Positions 27,259 to 37,518 of a DNA stretch of 64,000 nt are shown here, piece after piece; positions within the stretch are counted from its first letter, which is position 1, and every line of letters starts with the position of its first letter. The notes beneath the pieces are model-generated. The model did not search any database. It had not been told where the DNA came from and was given only the letters and a program-made list of their open reading frames with translations. This DNA comes from an uncultured Gammaproteobacteria bacterium (GTDB lineage Bacteria > Patescibacteriota > Patescibacteriia > UBA1558 > 2-01-FULL-52-15), in contig CAYOCJ010000001.1 in NCBI GenBank assembly GCA_964402565.1, forward strand, positions 160,079-224,078. The letters are read 5' to 3'. Position numbers and translations under genes: made by a program.

Positions 27259-28419
27259 ATGGCCAAAAAGAGCTATTTGGGCATCGATATCGGTACATCC
27301 GGCATCAAAGTTACCCAGCTTGAGAATTTCAAAGGTCAACCGAAGCTTGTTACCTATGGTTATGCGGAAGCGAAGTTCGATATTATCCGCGATCAGTCCA
27401 AAGAACTGCAGACAACCGTAGCGAATTTGATCGGCCAGGTATTGCAGCGGTCGAGGGTCACGACAACGGCAGCTATCGCTGCACTTCCGACCTTCTCGGT
27501 TTTTAACTCGATCATCAGCTTGCCGCGCATGTCCAGAAGGGACCTTGATACGGCTATCAAATGGGAAGCAAAAAAGTTCATACCGCTGCCTATCGATGAG
27601 ATGATCCTTTCGCACAAGATCCTGGAAGGCGCGCAGTCGAGCTTTGCAGAGAAGCTCTTCATGCTGAATATGAGTTCATTGATGAAGAAAAAGGGCGATG
27701 CAGGGAAAGATGCGCCCGGACTGGCTGCTGGAGCGCCTCCGGTCCAGCCTGGCGGCAAAGAGGATGGCGATGATGCGAAGAAAAACGTACGCATACTTCT
27801 CACGGCGGCTCCAAAAAATCTGGTATCAAGGTATGTCGAAATCTTCAAGGCTGCAAACCTGCATTTATTGAGCCTTGAAACAGAAGCGCTGGCCCTTTCC
27901 CAGTCGCTCATCGGCAGCGAGAATGCAAGCGTCATGGTCATCGACATTGGCTCAGCCGCGACCAATATTTGCATGGTCGAAAAGGGCGTACCGGTCCTGA
28001 ATCGGGGACTGGATATCGGCGGTTACCATATTACGAAATCAATCAGCAATAGTTTAAACGTCAATTTTGAGCGGGCCGAGCAATTCAAACTGGATTTCGG
28101 TATCCGCATGCAGGATCAGCGCGGCGGTATTCCGGATGCGATCAAAGATAGCTTGCAGCCGATCATCAATGAAATCCAGTATGTATTTGAACTCTATCAA
28201 AATCAGGGGAGCATTACCGTCGATCGGATCTTGCTTTCCGGCGGCTCAGCATTCCTGCCGAACCTGACCAATTACTTGTCGCAACTCCTGAAGATCCCGG
28301 TCTATATCGGAAATCCCTGGGACCGCGTCGTGTACCCGGTAGATCTGAAACCGGTGCTCGAGAGCATTGGCCCGCAAATGGCTGTGTCTATCGGCTTGGC
28401 AATGAAATATATCGGCTAG
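27259..28419 (+). CDS. pilM: Type IV pilus assembly protein PilM
   Basis: Actin-like ATPase fold. Starts YLGIDIGTSGIKV. Confidence 0.85.
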   Translation: MAKKSYLGIDIGTSGIKVTQLENFKGQPKLVTYGYAEAKFDIIRDQSKELQTTVANLIGQVLQRSRVTTTAAIAALPTFSVFNSIISLPRMSRRDLDTAIKWEAKKFIPLPIDEMILSHKILEGAQSSFAEKLFMLNMSSLMKKKGDAGKDAPGLAAGAPPVQPGGKEDGDDAKKNVRILLTAAPKNLVSRYVEIFKAANLHLLSLETEALALSQSLIGSENASVMVIDIGSAATNICMVEKGVPVLNRGLDIGGYHITKSISNSLNVNFERAEQFKLDFGIRMQDQRGGIPDAIKDSLQPIINEIQYVFELYQNQGSITVDRILLSGGSAFLPNLTNYLSQLLKIPVYIGNPWDRVVYPVDLKPVLESIGPQMAVSIGLAMKYIG

Positions 28420-28440: not shown

Positions 28441-30813
28441 ATGTTTGATAAAAAATCAAAAGATCAGAACGACTTGGATCTTGGCGAGATCAATCTTCTT
28501 CCTGAAGATCTGAGGGGCTCAGCTGAGAAGTATAAGAAAGCAAAGAATACCAAAGAGGCTCTTTATCAGCTTCGCGCTCCAAAAAAAGTAAAAAAGCGCC
28601 GCCGCGTCCTTGCATGGCTGCCGTTTTTCGGCGGAGAGCATTGGGAGGTTACGCCTGACGCCGCTGGTAAACCGCGGCCCGCAGGACCGAAGATCCCTGA
28701 TGCCGTCGCTGTTGAAACAAATGCTCCGAAAGCTCCCGAAGATGTCGGCCGATCCGCAACACCGAATGAGTTCGGGATCATTGCTCCTGTGTTCGGTACT
28801 AAGACAGGCAATGGGCCTCTGTCGCCGAAGACAAAGCGATCATTCAAGCAGGGCCTATCGCTGGCATCATTTTTTGGAAAAAAACGGCCAGGCGCTCCTG
28901 CCCACTCTGGTGCCGTGCCGGTGGCACAGAATGTACAGGAACAGCGTCCGGTGCACACCTTTACGACGCCGCCCCGGCACTACAGTTTGTTGTCAGACAC
29001 TGCATTGACGGAAAAAGAGCAATCGAGCGTTTCAGCGCCGCATGGGAAGCCGATGGACGGTAGTGAGAGCGTGAGTCACGGTATGCGTCCGGCGATGATC
29101 CAAACCATGCGCCCGGCGCCTGCCGAGCAAAGTGCGAAGGCTTCCCGCAAATGGCATTTGCCGAAATGGCTGGACATCTTTTCACTGCTGGCACTATTTT
29201 CCGGACCAGGAAAAGCTCGATCGCAATCTCAGAAGCGACCTATCGAGCCCGGTTCTCAATTGGCTGCGGCGCGCGAACCAATGCCTTCTCAGGGCCCGCG
29301 GCCTATCGAGCCAATTCATTTACATGCTTCACCCGCGAAGCCAGAGATGGATCGTATGCCATCGCGCGCTCCGATAACGCCCGTTGCGGTGCCAAAAACG
29401 ATCGAAGCGGTGAATACGTTCACCGGCGTCATGCAAAGAACTCCATCACCGATGTCGAAAGCGCCGAAGGTTCCCGGGAAATGGCATTTGCCGAAATGGC
29501 TGGATATATTCTATTGGCTCGACCTATTCACGCGTACTGACAAACAGCATCCTATGCCGCCGAAAAGATCTTCCATTGTTCCGCCGGCGCCGCCGAAACC
29601 ATTGGGCTTCACGCCGCCTGCACCTGCTCCTCAACCTTTGCAACCGGTCATTACTCCTATCCAGCCGGCGATCAAGCCTGTTGAGATGAAAAAAGAACAG
29701 ATGCCGGTAACGCCGATTACGCCTATCGCTTTTCCGAAACCCATCGAACCTATGAAAGCGCCTTTGCCCAGTATTCAGAAAACGCCGATGCCTCAGCCAA
29801 AGGCACCGAAACTTCATACAGAATGGCATATGCCGAAATGGCTGACCATGGCTTTTTGGCTCCATTTATTCCGACGGCAGCATACGTCTTTGCCAATGCC
29901 TAACAAGCATGCAGCGCCAGCACCTCCGGCTCCGAAACCGATGCTGACGCCAATGCCTGCAAAAACGCCTGTGACGCCTCCTCCTATGCCTATGCCCAAA
30001 GCACCTGCTCCGGCCATGCAAAGCGTACCAGGCATGCCTTCTCTTGCATCGGCAGCCGGCTCTGTGCACCCCGCGCAGCCGGTCACACCGGCAGCAGCGC
30101 CACGTCCGGTTTCAAATGATATTGTAGCTATCAAAGATGACGGGGATCATTCAAAAGAAAAAAAGCAAAAAGGACATCGCGGCATGCTATTCCATATGCC
30201 GACGAAAAATGCTTTTGCCAATGCATCGAAAGAGCTGCGGGAGATCAATCTTATTCCGGGCACGTATTTTGCACCGAAAGGCTGGAAGCAAATTAGCCTC
30301 AGCATCGGCATCGCGGTTTTTGTATCAGCAGGCCTGATAGGGCTTGCATTTGGCGGCCTGCATCTCTGGAGGATACAGCTCGATAAGCAAACAGCGGCGA
30401 TCGACACGCAGATAGAGTCGGTCAAGAACCGCATCTTGCTCTATAATGACCAAGAACCTGAAATGAGCGCTTTGGGAAATCGTGTGGAACTGGTGGCGCA
30501 ATTGCTGAATAAGCATGTGTACCTCACGAATTTCTTCAAACTACTTGAAAAGTATACATTGCCGGACGTGTATTACGATGGCGCTTCTGTTTCAGCTTCG
30601 GCAACTTCGATCACATTGAGCGCGCATGGCTCTAGTTTTGAAACCATTTCTCGCGAACTGCAATTAATGGGTTTGCCTGAAGCACAGGAATTCGTGACGA
30701 AGGCAACTATATCCAATGCGCAGTTGACGAAAAATGAAGATGGCGTTGATCAGGTCAACTTTAATATTGAATTGAATTTGAATCCAAATTTGTTCTACTA
30801 CCATGCTGGGTAA
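28441..30813 (+). CDS. PilN-like protein with a roughly 580-aa Pro-rich N-terminal insertion
   Basis: INLLP PilM-binding motif at aa 17-21 and again (INLIP) just before the single TM. The C-terminal coiled-coil resembles PilN. Three cytoplasmic repeats of about 110 aa, each with a WH(L/M)PKWL motif. Confidence 0.55.
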   Translation: MFDKKSKDQNDLDLGEINLLPEDLRGSAEKYKKAKNTKEALYQLRAPKKVKKRRRVLAWLPFFGGEHWEVTPDAAGKPRPAGPKIPDAVAVETNAPKAPEDVGRSATPNEFGIIAPVFGTKTGNGPLSPKTKRSFKQGLSLASFFGKKRPGAPAHSGAVPVAQNVQEQRPVHTFTTPPRHYSLLSDTALTEKEQSSVSAPHGKPMDGSESVSHGMRPAMIQTMRPAPAEQSAKASRKWHLPKWLDIFSLLALFSGPGKARSQSQKRPIEPGSQLAAAREPMPSQGPRPIEPIHLHASPAKPEMDRMPSRAPITPVAVPKTIEAVNTFTGVMQRTPSPMSKAPKVPGKWHLPKWLDIFYWLDLFTRTDKQHPMPPKRSSIVPPAPPKPLGFTPPAPAPQPLQPVITPIQPAIKPVEMKKEQMPVTPITPIAFPKPIEPMKAPLPSIQKTPMPQPKAPKLHTEWHMPKWLTMAFWLHLFRRQHTSLPMPNKHAAPAPPAPKPMLTPMPAKTPVTPPPMPMPKAPAPAMQSVPGMPSLASAAGSVHPAQPVTPAAAPRPVSNDIVAIKDDGDHSKEKKQKGHRGMLFHMPTKNAFANASKELREINLIPGTYFAPKGWKQISLSIGIAVFVSAGLIGLAFGGLHLWRIQLDKQTAAIDTQIESVKNRILLYNDQEPEMSALGNRVELVAQLLNKHVYLTNFFKLLEKYTLPDVYYDGASVSASATSITLSAHGSSFETISRELQLMGLPEAQEFVTKATISNAQLTKNEDGVDQVNFNIELNLNPNLFYYHAG

Positions 30814-31498
30814 ATCTAAAAAGAAAAAAGAAGCATCAGGACAGGCTCAAAAGAAAGAGCAGTCTTCCCTCGCGCTTCAGATTGTGAATCGTTATTTGCG
30901 GTGGGTTTTGTTCTTGGTCGTCTGCATCATGCTCTTCATCGGTTATACCTTCATCCTCCAGCAGCAGATCAGCGAAGCTCAAAGTGCCGCTAAGGAAAGT
31001 TTGCCGCTCAAACAAGAGGTGCTTGATGATCTGAAAACGATCGAGACTAAGCTTGACCAGGCATCCTCGGATTATGACCGTATTTTGAGAGAGAAGAAGC
31101 CGGCACTCGATCGTATTGCATTGTTGCTTCCTCGACATTCAGAATACGGGGAGCTCTTCCCATTGCTCAATAAAATAACACAGGCGAGCGGTTTCACATT
31201 GCAATCGATGAATCTGACATTGCCAGCCGATGCTGATGCGCCACCGGCATCTACGTCAGACACTTCGGTTTCTGATCCGATCACATCAGGTTTAGTGCAT
31301 GCCATCAATATACGCTTGAGCGTCCAAGGTGGTGACTATGAGGGCATTAAGAATTACTTGAAAAATCTTGAGCGAAATGTGCGCCTGTTCGATATTTCGT
31401 CAGTGACGGTAAGCGGGTCCGTTTTCATTCAGCAAAATAACGGAGTTACCACAACGCCGGCCTATGATCTGGAGCTCAAAACATACTATCAGCCTTAG
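30803..31498 (+). CDS. PilO-like pilus assembly protein
   Basis: Lys-rich N-terminus, single TM, coiled-coil, periplasmic domain. Sits between the PilN-like gene and pilB. Confidence 0.5.
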   Translation: MLGKSKKKKEASGQAQKKEQSSLALQIVNRYLRWVLFLVVCIMLFIGYTFILQQQISEAQSAAKESLPLKQEVLDDLKTIETKLDQASSDYDRILREKKPALDRIALLLPRHSEYGELFPLLNKITQASGFTLQSMNLTLPADADAPPASTSDTSVSDPITSGLVHAINIRLSVQGGDYEGIKNYLKNLERNVRLFDISSVTVSGSVFIQQNNGVTTTPAYDLELKTYYQP

Positions 31499-31501
31499 CA
31501 T

Positions 31502-31879
31502 ATGAAAAAGGATAAAATTTTGATCATTGTTTTTCTGCTGCTGCTTGCGTCATCCGGCTTAGTATTGTTCCGCGGATTCAGATCAGAAACTTTCAGCTCG
31601 GTGGAAACGCCGACAAGCTCGAATGATGATGTGGCTAAAACACAGGCTGAGGCAGTAAAGTCGAAGATCACGAACGCCATAAACAAGATCGATACAGGCG
31701 GATCCCTCGATACGCTTATTCAGAGTCAGCAATTCAAAGATCTGTTTCTGGTCGAAGGTCAGGGTGAGACCGATCTGCCGGTGCAGGTAGTTACGACCAC
31801 GACGATCGGTGATTATGGACGGCCGAATCCGTTCCTGGTGCCGACACTCCTGGCAACAACGACAAAACCAAAGAAATAA
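31502..31879 (+). CDS. Hypothetical secreted protein in pilus operon (PilP-like?)
   Basis: Signal/TM then a Thr-rich tail. Operon position only. Confidence 0.3.
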   Translation: MKKDKILIIVFLLLLASSGLVLFRGFRSETFSSVETPTSSNDDVAKTQAEAVKSKITNAINKIDTGGSLDTLIQSQQFKDLFLVEGQGETDLPVQVVTTTTIGDYGRPNPFLVPTLLATTTKPKK

Positions 31880-31894
31880 AAGGAGAGCTGAGAT

Positions 31895-33646
31895 ATGGTG
31901 AAGGCTATTGTAAAACAATATATCGATTTGCTGCGCGAGAAGCAGCTGATCGGTGACGCTGACCAGAGCGAGACGCTTGCGCAGGATTTTGCTGCAATTG
32001 CAGACGTTGATACCTTTCTTGCCCGCCGCCAGGTCATCAATGAAGAAGAGATCACCAAAGCAAAAGCTGAACTCTATAACTTTGAGTACATCAACCTCAT
32101 CGGCAAATCTATCAGCTCAGGCTTATTGAATCTCCTGCCGCGGGATCTGTCAGATAATTATAAGATCGTCGTGTTTGACCGGGAGGGTACGGTCATTAAA
32201 GTAGGTATGGTCGATCCGGGTAATTTCAAGGCTATCGAAGCTGTTGATTTCATGGCGCTCAAGAACGGGCTGCAGGTCAAATACTTCGCCATATCGACAG
32301 ACAGTTACCGCGCAGCTTCGAAGCAGTACGAGAATATCCACGAAGAGGTAGGGGAGGCTCTCGACACCGCAGAAAGCATCTTTGCGCCGAAAGAAGAGGT
32401 CGGCCTTGAAACCGACGGCAAAAAGACGCTCGATGAAATGATCAAGAGCGCGCCGGTGACGAAGATTGTTTCCGTCGTTTTGCGCCACGCGATCGAGGGG
32501 CGGGCATCAGATATTCATATTGAGCCTGTCGGCAACCAGAGCCGTATTCGCTACCGCATCGATGGCATTTTGCATACGACCATCGTATTGCCGATCTATG
32601 TGCATGCTGCGCTCGTGTCGCGCGTCAAAGTTATGGCAAATCTAAAGATCGATGAAACAAGAATACCCCAAGACGGCCGTATTCGCTTGAATATTTTCAA
32701 TAAAGACGTGGACTTCCGCGTTTCGACCATTCCGTTGATGAATTCTGAGAAGGTCGTGATGAGAATTCTGACCACTCCGGAAAAAGCCCCGACCTTGGAA
32801 GATCTCGGTTTCCAGGGCCTCCAGCTTGCAAAGATGCAGCGGAATATCAAGAAGCCGAACGGCATGTTCCTGGTCACGGGTCCTACGGGAAGCGGTAAAT
32901 CAACAACACTCTTCGCTGTTCTCTCTATTTTGAATGCAGAATCAGTGAATATCACGACATTGGAAGATCCGGTAGAATATTTCATCTCAGGCGTGAACCA
33001 AAGCGCTATTCGACCGGAAGTCGGTTTTACCTTTGCGAACGGCCTTCGCGCTCTGCTGCGGCAAGACCCGAATATCATCATGGTCGGCGAAATCCGCGAT
33101 AATGAAACAGCATCCCTTGGTATTCAGGCGAGCTTGACCGGACACTTCCTGCTCTCGACCCTGCACACCAATAGCGCAGTGGGCGCCATCCCGCGTTTGT
33201 ATGATATGAAAGTCGAGCCATTCCTGCTTTCCAATACGTTGAATATCGTGGTCGCGCAGCGCCTTGTCCGAAAAATTTGCACGTTCTGCAAGCGTCCGAC
33301 CGACGTTGCGCCTGATGTATTGGAACGCGTGAAATCTGACTTTGCAGTTATACCGCCGAATGCTATGTATGGAGGCGTCACGCCTACATCGCCGCTTACT
33401 TTTTTCAGAGGAGCTGGCTGCCCGCGCTGCGGCCACTCAGGCTATTCAGGCCGGTCGACGATCGTTGAGGCCATCGAAGTCACCAAGAGCATGAAAGATC
33501 TGATTACGACCGGCTTTCGGCGGAAAGAGGTCGATGAAGAGTTGAAAAAACAGGATTATATCACTATGAAGCAGGATGGCATTATCAAAGCCTTGCTCGG
33601 CTCTACCACCTTGGAAGAGGTTATGATGGCGAGCGAGGAAAAATAA
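31895..33646 (+). CDS. pilB: Type IV pilus assembly ATPase PilB (GspE family)
   Basis: Walker A VTGPTGSGKSTTL, GspE N-domain, tetracysteine CTFC...CPRCGHSG. Confidence 0.9.
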   Translation: MVKAIVKQYIDLLREKQLIGDADQSETLAQDFAAIADVDTFLARRQVINEEEITKAKAELYNFEYINLIGKSISSGLLNLLPRDLSDNYKIVVFDREGTVIKVGMVDPGNFKAIEAVDFMALKNGLQVKYFAISTDSYRAASKQYENIHEEVGEALDTAESIFAPKEEVGLETDGKKTLDEMIKSAPVTKIVSVVLRHAIEGRASDIHIEPVGNQSRIRYRIDGILHTTIVLPIYVHAALVSRVKVMANLKIDETRIPQDGRIRLNIFNKDVDFRVSTIPLMNSEKVVMRILTTPEKAPTLEDLGFQGLQLAKMQRNIKKPNGMFLVTGPTGSGKSTTLFAVLSILNAESVNITTLEDPVEYFISGVNQSAIRPEVGFTFANGLRALLRQDPNIIMVGEIRDNETASLGIQASLTGHFLLSTLHTNSAVGAIPRLYDMKVEPFLLSNTLNIVVAQRLVRKICTFCKRPTDVAPDVLERVKSDFAVIPPNAMYGGVTPTSPLTFFRGAGCPRCGHSGYSGRSTIVEAIEVTKSMKDLITTGFRRKEVDEELKKQDYITMKQDGIIKALLGSTTLEEVMMASEEK

Positions 33647-33679
33647 CCCGGCATCCTATAACAATTAACAGCTCTACCT

Positions 33680-34045
33680 ATGCAAAAGAAAATAATGATC
33701 GTAGAAGATGACGAGTTCTTGGTGCAGATGTACGCAACAAAGCTCGAATTGCAGGATTATCTGGTCACCACGGCCGGGGACGGCAAGCAGGCGATGAAGC
33801 TCATTCGAAAAGACAAGCCGGATCTGATTTTGCTGGACCTGAACCTGCCGGTGATGGACGGCTTTCAGGTGCTTGAAGAATTAAAGAAAGATGCGGCGCT
33901 CAAGAGCATTCCGGTGCTGGTACTGACGAACTATGGGCAGAAAGAACATATCGACAAGTGCCTGGCGCTTGGTGCCGTGGATTATCTTATCAAAGCTCAT
34001 TTCGTCCCGTCCGAGGTTGTCGATAAAATAAAAGTCCTTATTTAA
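33680..34045 (+). CDS. Response regulator, REC domain only (CheY-like)
   Basis: IMIVEDDEFLV...DLILLDLNLPVMDG. Phospho-acceptor Asp context. No output domain. Confidence 0.8.
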   Translation: MQKKIMIVEDDEFLVQMYATKLELQDYLVTTAGDGKQAMKLIRKDKPDLILLDLNLPVMDGFQVLEELKKDAALKSIPVLVLTNYGQKEHIDKCLALGAVDYLIKAHFVPSEVVDKIKVLI

Positions 34046-34059
34046 TCTGAATCGAGATC

Positions 34060-35127
34060 ATGCCGGCATCCAGCGTCGAAACTCTTTCACTGAATTCAAT
34101 TTTCAGCACCGCTTTGGAAAAAAAAGCGACTGATATTCATTTGATTGCGGGAAATTACCCGGTGTTGCGGCTGGACAGTAAGCTATTCGTCCTGGCAGAT
34201 GAGAAAGTGCTGAGCGTCGATATCATCATGTCCCTGATAGACGCCTGGCTGACCCCCGAAGAAAAAGAACGACTCAATAAAGAAAAAGAGATCAGGACAA
34301 TTTACACGTGGGCTGATCGGGCGCGCTTCAGAGCCTCGATTTTTTATCAGCAAGGGTATCCGGCCATTTCATTGCGGGCTATTCCGCGAGACATTCCTGA
34401 TCCGAAGATCTTGGGCATTCCAGACCTCTTGCTTGACCGCATCACGAACAGGCAGGGCTTGATCATACTCTGCGGGCCTTTTAACTCTGGCCGCACAACG
34501 ACTATGGCTAGTTTGTTGCAATATGTGAATATGAGCCATAGCAGGCGCATTGTGACGCTTGAGCGGCCTATCGAGTATATGATCATCAATAATAAATCGA
34601 TCATCAATCAGCGTGAAGTAGGCCGCGATACCCCTTCATTCATCCAGGGCTCGAAAGATCTGCTCGACGAGGACGCTGATATCGTTGCGATCAGCGAAGC
34701 TTCAGAGCAAGGCATCCAGGAACTTGTCTTGACGCTTGCAGAGAGCGGCAAATTAGTGATCATGATCATGAACGCTGCATCAAGTATTTCGGCAATCGAA
34801 CATTTCATTGACTCCATTCCGAAAGAACGCAGGCAATGGGCGAAAGACGCTTTATCGCATGTTCTGATCGCCATTGCAGCACAGCGCCTGGTGCCGGGCG
34901 CCGGAGGAGGCCGTGTGCTGGCGGTAGAAGTGCTCACGATGAATGCCGCAGTGACATCGATCTTGCAGGAGGATAACTTCGCACAGCTCGGCACTGTTCT
35001 GCAGACATCTCGCGATGAAGGAATGATCAGTCTGGATTATCGTTTAGTAGAGCTGGTGCGCACCGGCAAGATATCTGCGGAAGAGGCGAAAAGATATGCG
35101 GTCGACCCAAGCTCAATTAGGTCATAA
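34060..35127 (+). CDS. pilT: PilT-like retraction-ATPase homolog with degenerate Walker A
   Basis: PilT N-domain and fold. Walker A reads GPFNSGRTT instead of GPTGSGKST. Confidence 0.7.
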   Translation: MPASSVETLSLNSIFSTALEKKATDIHLIAGNYPVLRLDSKLFVLADEKVLSVDIIMSLIDAWLTPEEKERLNKEKEIRTIYTWADRARFRASIFYQQGYPAISLRAIPRDIPDPKILGIPDLLLDRITNRQGLIILCGPFNSGRTTTMASLLQYVNMSHSRRIVTLERPIEYMIINNKSIINQREVGRDTPSFIQGSKDLLDEDADIVAISEASEQGIQELVLTLAESGKLVIMIMNAASSISAIEHFIDSIPKERRQWAKDALSHVLIAIAAQRLVPGAGGGRVLAVEVLTMNAAVTSILQEDNFAQLGTVLQTSRDEGMISLDYRLVELVRTGKISAEEAKRYAVDPSSIRS

Positions 35128-35144
35128 GCAGGGAACATCAATAC

Positions 35145-36356
35145 ATGCCAATTTTTAAATACAGAGCACTGAACTCATTACGACAGCTTCAAAAAGGGCT
35201 GGTTGAAGCAGCAACCATAGAAGCTGTTGCTGAACTATTGGTCGAAAGAAAATTGACCATTGTTTCCATCGAAGAAGGGAATCAGGGCGGCTTTTCATTG
35301 GCTGCGATCCCGTTTTTTGGCAAAGCAAAACGAAAAAATGTAGTCATTTTTTCGCGGCAGCTTGCGGTGATGATGGCAGCGACCGTGCCTATTGTACAGG
35401 CGCTGCGCATCCTCATCGTACAGACAGACGATAAGGTGCTCAAACAGATCATTTCCAGCATGGCCAATGACATTGATGGCGGTATGAAACTTTCTTCAGC
35501 ATTCGCGAAACATCCTGAAACATTCAGCAATTTCTATGTCGCGATGTTGCGGTCCGGTGAAACAAGCGGACGATTGGAAAAGGTTCTGAATTACCTTGCA
35601 ACTCAGATGGAGAAAGACTATGACCTGGTCAGCCGCATCAAGGGGGCGATGATCTATCCGGCCTTTATTATTACCTCGCTTGTTGGCGTAGGAGCCGCCA
35701 TGCTTATCTTCGTTGTTCCAAAAATGACGGCATTGCTTCAGGAAAATGGCGCAGAGCTGCCGTTCATGACTAAAATGCTGATTGCAGTCAGTAATTTTCT
35801 TACGCATTTCTGGTGGGCACTTCTGTTGGGGTTCATTGTCTTTATTACGGGCGTTCGCGTAGCCTTGCGCTCAAAAGTAGGCCGCGAGACATGGGACAAT
35901 AGCAAGCTGCATATTCCGATCTTCGGCGTCCTCTTCAAAAGGATCATTTTGTCGCGCTTTGCAACGGGTCTTTCTACGCTTATCAAAGGAGGCGTGCCTA
36001 TCAGCCGCGCATTGAAGATAACCTCGGACGTCGTATCGAATCAGGCATTCAAGGCGCTGATAGAGGAGACCGTGAAAGAAGTGGAGGACGGAAATTCGAT
36101 TACCACGATTTTTTCGCAGAATAAATTGGTGCCGGCGATCGTTTCTCAGATGATGGGAGTCGGTGAACGTACCGGCCGCATGGACGAGGTCCTGGATCGT
36201 TTAGGCGATTTCTATTCGAGGGAAGTAGATACTATGATCGGAAGCCTTACGTCGCTCATCGAGCCGGTCATTATGATCATTCTTGGTGTTGGCGTAGGCC
36301 TTATGGTTTCAGCAATTATTTTGCCGATTTTTCAGGTCGCAAATAGCATTTCTTAA
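35145..36356 (+). CDS. pilC: Type IV pilus platform protein PilC (GspF family)
   Basis: Two GspF repeats, 3 TM. Confidence 0.85.
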   Translation: MPIFKYRALNSLRQLQKGLVEAATIEAVAELLVERKLTIVSIEEGNQGGFSLAAIPFFGKAKRKNVVIFSRQLAVMMAATVPIVQALRILIVQTDDKVLKQIISSMANDIDGGMKLSSAFAKHPETFSNFYVAMLRSGETSGRLEKVLNYLATQMEKDYDLVSRIKGAMIYPAFIITSLVGVGAAMLIFVVPKMTALLQENGAELPFMTKMLIAVSNFLTHFWWALLLGFIVFITGVRVALRSKVGRETWDNSKLHIPIFGVLFKRIILSRFATGLSTLIKGGVPISRALKITSDVVSNQAFKALIEETVKEVEDGNSITTIFSQNKLVPAIVSQMMGVGERTGRMDEVLDRLGDFYSREVDTMIGSLTSLIEPVIMIILGVGVGLMVSAIILPIFQVANSIS

Positions 36357-36372: not shown

Positions 36373-36459
36373 ATCATAACTACAATCATCATGCTGAAAG
36401 ATACTTTTTCTGATTATCTGGAAAATAAATCCTGGCAGTATCATGCACTGAACCACAGT

Positions 36460-36918
36460 ATGAACGTACTGTCTAAGAGCAGAGGATTTACGCTCATCGA
36501 ATTGCTCGTCGTGATCGCAATCATTGGCCTTCTCGCGTCTATCGCCATGGTTAACCTGAACAGTGCCCGAGGTAAGGCAAAGATCGCCTCAGCGAAGTCA
36601 ACCATGCATTCCATTCAGTCAGCCGCGGTGCTTTGTCAGGATGGATACAGCAGTAATATTGCCTGGAACACTATTGGAAACCTGTGCGCAAGCACTGGCG
36701 TTAACACCGTAGCAGGTAATAAGCCTGCGAATGGTACCACGGTCTGTAACTCGAACGGTGCAGCTGGTTCGATCAACTGGCCAGACCTGCCAACCGGCTG
36801 GAACTACCAAAACGGCTGTAACCAAGTTTCTGCAAATAGCAGCTTTACGTATAGCGCTACAGATCAAACCTGTATTATCACCTGTACACAAATAGCCTGC
36901 ACATACGCAGGTTGTTAG
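36460..36918 (+). CDS. pilA: Type IV major pilin (prepilin with class III signal peptide), copy 1
   Basis: Leader then G/FTLIELLVVIAIIG with Glu+5. The C-terminus has paired Cys. The alternative upstream start at 36391 has no SD. Confidence 0.75.
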   Translation: MNVLSKSRGFTLIELLVVIAIIGLLASIAMVNLNSARGKAKIASAKSTMHSIQSAAVLCQDGYSSNIAWNTIGNLCASTGVNTVAGNKPANGTTVCNSNGAAGSINWPDLPTGWNYQNGCNQVSANSSFTYSATDQTCIITCTQIACTYAGC

Positions 36919-36966: not shown

Positions 36967-37068
36967 GTTTAGTACTGGTCGATATGTGGATAGTTTATAA
37001 TTTAAATATCTGTTAAGAGGAAGACACGAGCTCGTTTTCTCTTAACCACAATGAATGGAGGTGACAGA

Positions 37069-37518
37069 ATGAACAAAAACAAAGGATTTACGCTCATCGA
37101 ATTGCTCGTCGTGATCGCTATTATCGGTATTTTGGCTGCGATCGCCATGGTTAACCTGAACAGTGCCCGAGGTAAGGCAAAGATCGCCTCAGCGAAGTCA
37201 ACCATGCATTCCATTCAGTCAGCCGCGGTGCTTTGTCAGGATGGATACAGCAGTAATATTGCCTGGAACACTATTGGAAACCTGTGCGCAAGCACTGGCG
37301 TTAACACCGTAGCAGGTAATAAGCCTGCGAATGGTACCACGGTCTGTAACTCGAACGGTGCAGCTGGTTCGATCAACTGGCCAGACCTGCCAACCGGCTG
37401 GAACTACCAAAACGGCTGTAACCAAGTTTCTGCAAATAGCAGCTTTACGTATAGCGCTACAGATCAAACCTGTATTATCACCTGTACGGAGACTGCTTGT
37501 ACGTATACCTCTTGTTGA
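37069..37518 (+). CDS. pilA: Type IV major pilin, copy 2 (near-identical to copy 1)
   Basis: MNKNKG/FTLIELLVV prepilin motif. About 420 nt (37081-37495) identical to 36481-36895. Diverges only in the last roughly 8 codons. Confidence 0.8.
   Translation: MNKNKGFTLIELLVVIAIIGILAAIAMVNLNSARGKAKIASAKSTMHSIQSAAVLCQDGYSSNIAWNTIGNLCASTGVNTVAGNKPANGTTVCNSNGAAGSINWPDLPTGWNYQNGCNQVSANSSFTYSATDQTCIITCTETACTYTSC

Follow-up and report, generated by a model that had tools for sequence, protein, structure and literature searches.

What might a PilN protein do with several hundred residues placed between its PilM-docking peptide and the membrane? The question is raised by a gene in a 64,000-nucleotide (nt) stretch of contig CAYOCJ010000001.1 (positions 160,079 to 224,078), which was deposited under an uncultured Gammaproteobacteria bacterium and is placed by GTDB among the Patescibacteriota. 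This whole stretch is called the window here; coordinates count from its first letter, and all features described lie on the + strand. Positions 28441..30813 form a single open reading frame (ORF) with a product of 790 amino acids (aa), and homologues of 647-777 aa are found at the same operon position. On the basis of operon context, fold, and transitive profile evidence, this ORF can securely be assigned as a divergent PilN of a Patescibacteria (Komeilibacteria-like) type IV pilus operon. Its extended architecture, with two PilM-binding-like motifs, belongs to a large and apparently undescribed group of PilN proteins in Patescibacteria, in which the window gene is among the longest members and represents a clade-specific form.

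A divergent PilN encoded by one gene

The gene is flanked by pilM and a pilO-like gene. The upstream neighbor (27259..28419) encodes a 386-aa PilM, the actin-like partner of PilN, which matches PF11104 (1.1e-37) and TIGR01175 (1.2e-50) as well as the PilM chains 3jc8_Ma, 2ych_A, and 5eou_A. The downstream neighbor (30803..31498) encodes 231 aa; a profile built from five orthologues matched the M. xanthus PilO 3jc8_Oa with E = 4.3e-5, and hhalign gave the protein a probability of 88% against the PilN family. pilM ends 21 nt ahead of the pilN start codon and is in the same frame, and the pilN stop and pilO-like start overlap by 11 nt (30803-30813), a tight spacing that is consistent with translational coupling of the three alignment genes.

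A structure prediction with AlphaFold2 (AF2), run with a 134-sequence alignment, gave aa 612-790 a predicted local distance difference test score (pLDDT) that exceeds 88 almost throughout and drops to about 80 at the extreme C-terminus. One helix spans aa 612-690 with pLDDT above 90. It contains the only segment of transmembrane (TM) grade found in a hydropathy scan, at about aa 617-640, and runs on into a periplasmic coiled coil up to aa 690 (30289..30510). An alpha/beta domain follows at aa 695-785 (30523..30795; pLDDT 88-98), with the ferredoxin-like fold of the PilN/GspL-type extracytoplasmic domain. Foldseek searches of this C-terminal domain against the PDB ranked GspL periplasmic domains first (XcpY 5n7l, EpsL 2w7v, PulL 5hl8, 8a9w; TM(target), the template modeling score, 0.63-0.72) and then PilO (3jc8_Oa, 5uvr). 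PilN and the GspL periplasmic domain are structural homologues (PMC4471445). The net charge is +42 before the TM helix and -7 after it, which gives an N-in topology.

The first-pass annotation of this DNA had called the product PilN-like, and this is borne out by the pilM and pilO-like neighbors, by an N-terminal PhiNLLP motif (Phi, a hydrophobic residue), and by the succession of TM helix, coiled coil, and ferredoxin-like fold. The alignment to PF05137 (PilN) that it proposed gave a divided answer: the window protein itself has no match, whereas 27 of the 121 relatives scanned do (best E = 2.9e-6), which makes PF05137 by far the commonest family among them. These matches sit on the C-terminal domain, and the three inspected score below the gathering threshold. 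The window protein was also matched weakly by the NCBIfam model TIGR01709 (GspL) around the TM helix (E = 0.004, 16 bits against a cutoff of 65). Single-sequence searches for solved PilN proteins gave only low-complexity or coiled-coil noise, and short-peptide searches for the PilN N-termini in the PDB gave nothing useful. A WXG100-like match of aa 14-35 (E ~0.2) was taken as chance.

An ORF of such odd, repetitive composition invites the suspicion that a frameshift or misassembly has joined a preceding gene with INLLP to an ordinary pilN, or that repeats have been collapsed or expanded. Nothing else that we found speaks for such an artefact, to which we give almost no credence. The identical 790-aa protein occurs in two Logan assemblies from different Sequence Read Archive (SRA) runs, and an NCBI source records it as well. 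Five homologues with 31-49% identity, from five other assemblies, each consist of one ORF with many in-frame indels, always between pilM and the pilO-like gene, and in those of 647, 687, 770, and 777 aa the conserved islands keep the same order. Both PilM-binding-like motifs stand within one ORF in 72 of 127 family members, and the DNA repeats, at 48 nt or less, are too short to mislead an assembler. The missed frameshift fusion and the assembly artefact, both of which the first-pass annotation had envisaged, therefore fail, and this is one genuine gene. Its start codon is fixed by the N-terminus MF(D/E)KKSKDQNDLDLGEINLLP, which is conserved among the homologues. An internal start yielding a short PilN isoform was considered and dropped, as Met582 and Met586 vary in homologues.

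The composition itself has a simple origin. Prolines account for 102 of residues 1-616 (~17%), and the guanine-cytosine (GC) content of 0.53-0.58 over 28.5-30.1 kb, against 0.41-0.50 in the flanks, together with a C-rich skew, is a product of Pro and Ala codons. A horizontal origin of this GC-rich stretch was rejected, since these codons explain its composition and the region is collinear with the homologues. Many spurious overlapping ORFs had also been noted in the gene. Seven of at least 80 aa are indeed present, on both strands, but at ~2.9 per kb their density is that seen over pilB, so that there is no enrichment.

Two conserved motif classes

The INLLP peptide was confirmed at aa 17-21 of the translation (nt 28489). 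With the helix of aa 22-38 (28489..28554; AF2 pLDDT 69-86) it forms a putative PilM-docking peptide of the canonical type. The second motif, INLIP, does adjoin the TM helix as first described, at aa 602-606 (nt 30244) and not near residue 607. It belongs to a juxtamembrane module at aa 584-616 (30190..30288), FHMP ... EINLIPG ... KGW, which follows a family-conserved pattern. INLLP lies 595 aa from the start of the TM helix and INLIP 10 aa, the latter being the canonical PilN spacing. The large, Pro-rich, cytoplasmic region predicted between the two motifs is real, with a length of ~585 aa and a charge pattern that places it inside the cell.

This layout is not peculiar to one giant protein, as might have been thought. 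An exhaustive hidden Markov model (HMM) search seeded with three full-length homologues returned 1675 representatives at E <= 1e-3 and 1005 at E <= 1e-10 (clusters at 50% identity); a word-index homologue search with the C-terminal part returned one match only. The best 150 representatives are mostly 300-944 aa long with a C-terminal PilN domain. Among the best family matches, 127 members could be scored, having a complete start and a TM helix past residue 80; both motifs were found in 72 of these, the N-terminal motif only in 13, and the TM-proximal motif only in 34. The motifs are separated by a median of 266 aa (range 109-648), and the 585 aa of the window protein are near the top of this range.

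The N-terminal class has the logo (M/K)K(D/N)-I97-N97-L83-L64/M-P88-E-D/E-L-R80-x-K-E, and the TM-proximal class GG(G/D)-V85-N59/D38-L100-I-P99-x5-(R/K)-S-W, whose Pro precedes the TM helix by a median of 9 aa. The juxtamembrane pattern of the family is FHxP-x(10-20)-GG-V(N/D)LIP-x5-(R/K)SW; in 57 of 130 members, its FHxP element is ~31 aa away from the TM helix on the N-terminal side. The Asn is present in 97% of the N-terminal class against 59% of the TM-proximal class, where 38% have Asp. The first-pass description of a duplicated PilM-binding motif thus holds in that two PhiNLLP-like motifs exist, but judged by their conservation patterns these are different, separately conserved classes, of which the second is at most a candidate PilM-binding motif. 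A preprint (bioRxiv 10.1101/2022.09.21.508927, citing Karuppiah & Derrick 2011 and Georgiadou 2012) describes the PhiNLLP of the PilN N-terminus as fitting a groove in PilM and the motif Asn as a key PilM contact (T. thermophilus N5, N. meningitidis N8A). Since this Asn is nearly always kept in the N-terminal copy but often replaced by Asp in the proximal one, the N-terminal copy is the better candidate for the canonical PilM ligand.

Evolutionary rates differ along the protein. As the synonymous divergence (dS) is saturated (proportion of synonymous differences, pS, 0.7-0.95), only the proportion of nonsynonymous differences (pN) is given by region. In the comparison with L005, one of the two closest relatives, pN is 0.10 for aa 1-70, the lowest value in the protein, 0.175 for the juxtamembrane module, 0.23 for the TM helix and periplasmic part, and 0.39 for the linkers; PilM has a pN of 0.05 in the same comparison.

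Where family members that we examined carry a name, they are annotated as hypothetical. The literature on pili of the candidate phyla radiation (CPR)/Patescibacteria that names PilM, PilN, and PilO, as retrieved by full-text searches (PMC11623550, PMC6744442), describes no extended PilN, second motif, or tether helices. One of the long members, P0031 (L009 4001-6835, 944 aa), has a receiver domain (PF00072) fused behind the extracytoplasmic PilN domain. This arrangement is topologically odd and could be a fusion created by gene calling or assembly, or a real variant.

The tether and its possible roles

Between the two motifs, the AF2 pLDDT stays under 50 over nearly the whole of aa 39-580, the motif helices excepted. 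The most conspicuous of the conserved elements occurs three times. Copies 1 and 2 read WHLPKWL (aa 238 and 348; nt 29152 and 29482) and copy 3 reads WHMPKWL (aa 462; nt 29824), with a spacing of 110 and 114 aa, and a six-frame translation of the window contains WH[LM]PKWL in these three copies only. Each copy opens a unit. Unit 1 (aa 237-346; 29149..29478) consists of the motif KWHLPKWLDIFSLLALF (aa 237-253) and a Pro-rich linker, unit 2 (aa 347-460; 29479..29820) of KWHLPKWLDIFYWLDLF and a Pro-rich linker, and unit 3 (aa 461-570; 29821..30150) of EWHMPKWLTMAFWLHLF and a Pro/Ala-rich linker of weak similarity to the others.

The units are related by descent but have diverged. Tandem Repeats Finder (TRF) detected no tandem repeats at the DNA level, and self-BLASTP of the 790-aa protein detected no internal match. 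Self-BLAST of the DNA gave only a 48-nt match (89.6%) between copies 1 and 2 and a 23-nt match shared with copy 3, at the motif. When the linkers were compared by Smith-Waterman alignment, with the motif removed and scores set against shuffles, linkers 1 and 2 proved collinear over ~65 aa (score 117 against 48.7 +/- 7.2, z = 9.4), while z was 3.7 for linkers 2 and 3 and 2.0 for linkers 1 and 3. By these alignments, units 1 and 2 are diverged duplicates and unit 3 is marginal outside the motif. The scores indicate old duplications, after which the ~17-aa motif was kept and the linkers drifted. The three ~110-aa repeats first described are therefore three motif-bearing units that arose by duplication, but only ~17 aa of each have been kept.

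In a five-way alignment, L005 and L004, the closest relatives, have a clean gap of ~110 aa that corresponds exactly to unit 2, whereas L003 and L006 carry all three units. Copy-specific signatures are common to several lineages (...FSL[IL]A in copy 1, ...F[FY]WL in copy 2). Together with the presence pattern across lineages, they indicate that the three-copy state is ancestral to the clade and that whole units were lost. As a separate observation, the first 11 codons of copies 1 and 2 (KWHLPKWLDIF; 29149-29181 and 29479-29511) differ at only 2 of 33 nt and share their synonymous sites, and the remainder of the two units is strongly diverged; this near-identity may be due to local gene conversion or to constraint at the nucleotide level.

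It could be argued from these data that only the two ends of the protein matter, and that the ~500-aa middle is a largely neutral, expandable spacer that arose by duplication and slippage, its motifs being kept mainly because they were duplicated recently or homogenized by gene conversion. The linkers evolve faster than any other part (pN 0.39-0.51), whole units come and go between close relatives, the tether varies from 109 to 648 aa across the family, its linker composition depends on the clade (Pro-rich here, Glu/Lys-rich in P0031 and P0058), and copies 1 and 2 share 48 nt at 89.6%. However, a long tether is present in nearly all top family members despite very small genomes, the helix motifs described below are ~4-fold above shuffles, and the copy signatures are orthologously conserved, so that the motif copies are old and not recently converted. 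We regard a neutral spacer as quite unlikely.

Several other islands are conserved in the tether. Island A (aa 45-68, RAPKKVKKRRRVLAWLPFFGGEHW; 28573..28644) is a basic run followed by a short hydrophobic patch. Its discrimination factor D of 2.81 (HeliQuest-type) is the highest in the cytoplasmic region, and it is invariant in alignment A1 (YQLRAPKK..WLP.FGG.HW). Island B (aa 130-150, KTKRSFKQGLSLASFFGKKRP; 28828..28890) resembles a MinD-type membrane-targeting sequence (SFKQGLSLASFFGKKR); the island has D = 2.22 (z = +6), is kept in the five homologues, and is caught by a filter for aromatic/basic helices. The charge of both islands fits the membrane-targeting type, but their hydrophobic moment (muH) is only 0.18-0.26. 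A short linear motif, PPRHYSLL (aa 177-184; 28969..28992), follows. Columns P177-S185 are invariant in the homologue alignment, and the motif is kept in the five-way alignment, where its sole variable position is the first proline (APRHYSLL in L006).

Throughout the family, tethers carry 1-4 short aromatic helices with flanking Lys/Arg, such as PSLWSRFLALFKCKAK (three strong copies in P0036), SWWDKIKAFFTGVFAPKAKK (one of four in P0031), and KKKGFFAMLFGGRKRK (P0129). The aromatic/basic filter retained 110 segments against 29 expected in shuffled tethers, and an iterated amphipathic-helix HMM with the consensus SGPSFWSKLKSLFKKKPK was matched in 80 of 130 proteins, with up to 4 copies each. This consensus has a muH of 0.52 (z +6), comparable to that of the membrane-targeting sequences of MinD and FtsA.

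The WLDIF motifs of the window protein differ from these helices. AF2 predicts helices at aa 352-364 for motif 2 (pLDDT ~76) and aa 466-478 for motif 3 (~64). The amphipathic character first ascribed to the motif was not borne out: the cores are strongly hydrophobic (mean hydrophobicity H 0.86-1.08) and weakly amphipathic (muH 0.18-0.39). Copies 1 and 2 have no net charge, an Asp is conserved, and the sequence is near-invariant. A search for the motif in other CPR PilN homologues had been suggested, and LPKWLDIF is indeed invariant across the homologues of 31-49% identity. Such helices may either insert more deeply into the membrane or bind a specific protein ligand.

If the second of these holds, the WH(L/M)PKWLDIF helices, and perhaps PPRHYSLL and FHMP, would be short linear motifs for protein binding, and the tether a multivalent cytoplasmic scaffold with Pro-rich spacers. 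PilM subunits, the PilB/PilT ATPases, PilC, and a stand-alone receiver are candidate partners. Lipid-binding helices usually keep their composition and not their sequence, and LPKWLDIF is invariant both between diverged homologues and between paralogous copies; the conserved Asp within the helix and the zero net charge of the core also fit a protein ligand, as does the presence of a receiver between pilB and pilT in every locus long enough. However, the equivalent positions in the family hold basic amphipathic helices of variable sequence, which favors a generic membrane role, and the number of copies is 2 or 3 among close relatives whose PilM proteins are ~90% identical. A scaffold for protein ligands is thus possible, although we find it doubtful.

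We lean, with modest confidence, toward an expanded PilN in which a disordered tether that hugs the membrane presents the canonical N-terminal peptide to PilM. From the observed architecture, conservation, and fold we infer the binding steps as follows. The N-terminal INLLP would dock in the PilM groove as in the canonical PilM-PilN pair, but it would be held on a flexible, basic tether of ~585 aa instead of ~15 residues from the bilayer. By general polymer scaling, a random coil of this length would have an end-to-end distance of the order of 20 nm. The five islands, namely the two basic, MinD-like islands A and B and the three WLDIF motifs, would pin the tether to the inner leaflet together with flanking Lys/Arg residues, and PilM, once captured, would thereby be enriched in a shallow zone just beneath the membrane, around the PilN-PilO platform. 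The juxtamembrane FHxP-INLIP, at the position where canonical PilN carries its peptide, might serve either as a second PilM site close to the membrane or as an attachment point for some other part of the platform. Were it to bind PilM, each PilN could hold two PilM, or PilM could be handed over from a loosely tethered to a tightly docked state.

Several results weigh against this expanded, membrane-hugging PilN. The 790-aa protein matches no Pfam family, PF05137 included, at E <= 0.01, and the profile of the 134-member family gave only low-complexity and coiled-coil noise against the sequences of solved PilN proteins. AF2 gives weak support to motif 1 as a helix. The WLDIF cores appear atypical as peripheral amphipathic helices, and their features suit a specific protein ligand better than lipid. 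Finally, the family amphipathic-helix HMM (SGPSFWSKLKSLFKKKPK) did not detect the WLDIF motifs, so that their equivalence to the family helices rests on position and chemistry.

The tether might also be a multivalent organizer of the actin-like ATPase PilM, with at least two PilM bound per PilN through INLLP, FHxP-INLIP, and possibly WLDIF. This arrangement, which can be likened to the Pro-rich, tandem-helix nucleators of actin, seems unlikely to us. If it were true, one might expect the PilM layer to be enlarged or doubled, or a condensate to form at the membrane, and either would gate the access of PilB/PilT to the platform in an ultrasmall cell without an outer membrane. A hand-over of PilM between the distal and the proximal motif, if true, would give the Patescibacteria at large a new point at which the extension and retraction of pili are regulated.

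The pilus operon and comparison with known systems

Downstream of the pilO-like gene, the operon continues (31502..36356) with a 125-aa single-TM protein (31502-31879, directly after the pilO-like gene), pilB (31895-33646), a stand-alone receiver of 121 aa (33680-34045), pilT (34060-35127), and pilC (35145-36356). The order from pilM to pilT is identical in L001-L004, L007, and L008, with pilC next where the locus reaches that far. The receiver between pilB and pilT is found in every related locus long enough to show it (L003, L004, L007, and L008), distant members included, which suggests a PilG/PilH-like regulator built into the operon. The small single-TM protein has no Pfam or NCBIfam match. 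In relatives (L005 8765-9568; L006 5025-5351) its length is 108-267 aa, and toward the end of the region that all versions share, the motif G(D/Q/S)YGR(P/Q/A)NPF is conserved. Just downstream of pilC, a tandem pair of type IV pilin genes (36391-36918 and 37051-37518) encodes 175 and 155 aa, each with a class III signal peptide/pilin N-terminus, KGFTLIELLVVIAIIG. Past KGFTLIELLVVIAIIG their sequences are almost identical, and the leader ahead of the processing site is of unequal length in the two; the pair seems to have arisen by a tandem duplication in recent times.

PilM is 91% identical to its counterpart in L005 and 89% to that in L004, and its nearest named relatives are from Candidatus Komeilibacteria (77%), then from other Patescibacteria. 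Among the PilN homologues, P0010 is MBI4090721.1, "hypothetical protein [Candidatus Komeilibacteria bacterium]", and L006 is titled Patescibacteria group bacterium. L005 (CAYRBH010000013.1) bears the title "uncultured Gammaproteobacteria bacterium"; in view of the 91% identity between its PilM and that of the window, and of Candidatus Komeilibacteria as the nearest named relatives, the label of the bin is probably wrong. At about aa 130-180, PilM contains a low-complexity insertion of ~40 aa (KKKGDAGKDAPGLAAGAPPVQPGGKEDGDDAKK), with an amphipathic-looking FAEKLFMLNMSSLMKKK just before it. The insertion varies in length and sequence among homologues that are otherwise 55-91% identical, so that it shows as a run of x in their consensus (alignment A4), and it might be a loop that faces the membrane or the PilN tether.

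From a biological perspective, type IV pili are central to the attachment of Patescibacteria to their hosts and to movement on them (PMC11623550, PMC6744442). The cytoplasmic side of the Patescibacteria pilus machine has so far been assumed to be canonical, and a large group of PilN proteins (at least 1005 clusters) departs from this. In this group, a predicted PilM-docking peptide would be carried on a disordered tether of 100-650 aa with helices resembling membrane-targeting sequences, while a second conserved motif lies at the membrane, and the expected geometry and stoichiometry of the PilM-PilN interface are altered. The analysis offers concrete peptides and sites for point mutants (N18, N603, and the WLDIF helices), which would extend to the genetically tractable Saccharibacteria if PilN has this layout there too, and the family provides a natural series in which the evolution of tether length and helix number can be followed.

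The comparison with known systems can start within the Patescibacteria. PilN1 and PilN2 of cultivated Saccharibacteria (TM7x) and the CPR-enriched family fam000103 share with the window locus a PilM-PilN-PilO arrangement without PilQ (PMC11623550, PMC6744442), and their published descriptions mention no long cytoplasmic extension, dual motif, or tether helices. The membrane-targeting helices of MinD and FtsA show a likeness to the tether helices that does not imply homology: the consensus SGPSFWSKLKSLFKKKPK, KKKGFFAMLFGGRKRK (P0129), and island B (SFKQGLSLASFFGKKR) have the same short, aromatic, Lys/Arg-flanked design with similar muH and charge, although in island B only the charge fits clearly. 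However, the helices of the PilN family are internal and multiple, whereas those of MinD and FtsA are single and terminal, and the WLDIF helices of the window protein are more hydrophobic, uncharged, and fixed in sequence.

GspL (XcpY/EpsL/PulL) provides the best structural match to the C-terminal domain and the weak TIGR01709 match, and in it, too, a large cytoplasmic part precedes a single TM helix. GspL is functionally equivalent to PilM plus PilN (PMC4471445). Its cytoplasmic part is a folded, actin-like domain, whereas that of the window protein is predicted to be disordered, with no Pfam domain, and PilM is a separate, highly conserved protein.

The remaining comparison is with the canonical PilN of type IVa pilus machines (T. 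thermophilus, P. aeruginosa, M. xanthus; PF05137). The gene lies between pilM and pilO in both cases, and the proteins share an N-terminal PhiNLLP, one N-in TM helix, a coiled coil, and a ferredoxin-like outer domain. A PilM-binding peptide 10-20 aa from the TM helix, which is a trait of canonical PilN, is seen here only in INLIP, as the PhiNLIP ~10 aa before the TM helix has the canonical spacing, and not in the N-terminal motif. The window protein is ~4x longer and its sequence is too diverged for PF05137; ~585 residues predicted to be disordered, in place of ~15, lie between its PhiNLLP and the TM helix, its tether bears repeated hydrophobic helices, and a second motif class stands with FHxP next to the membrane.

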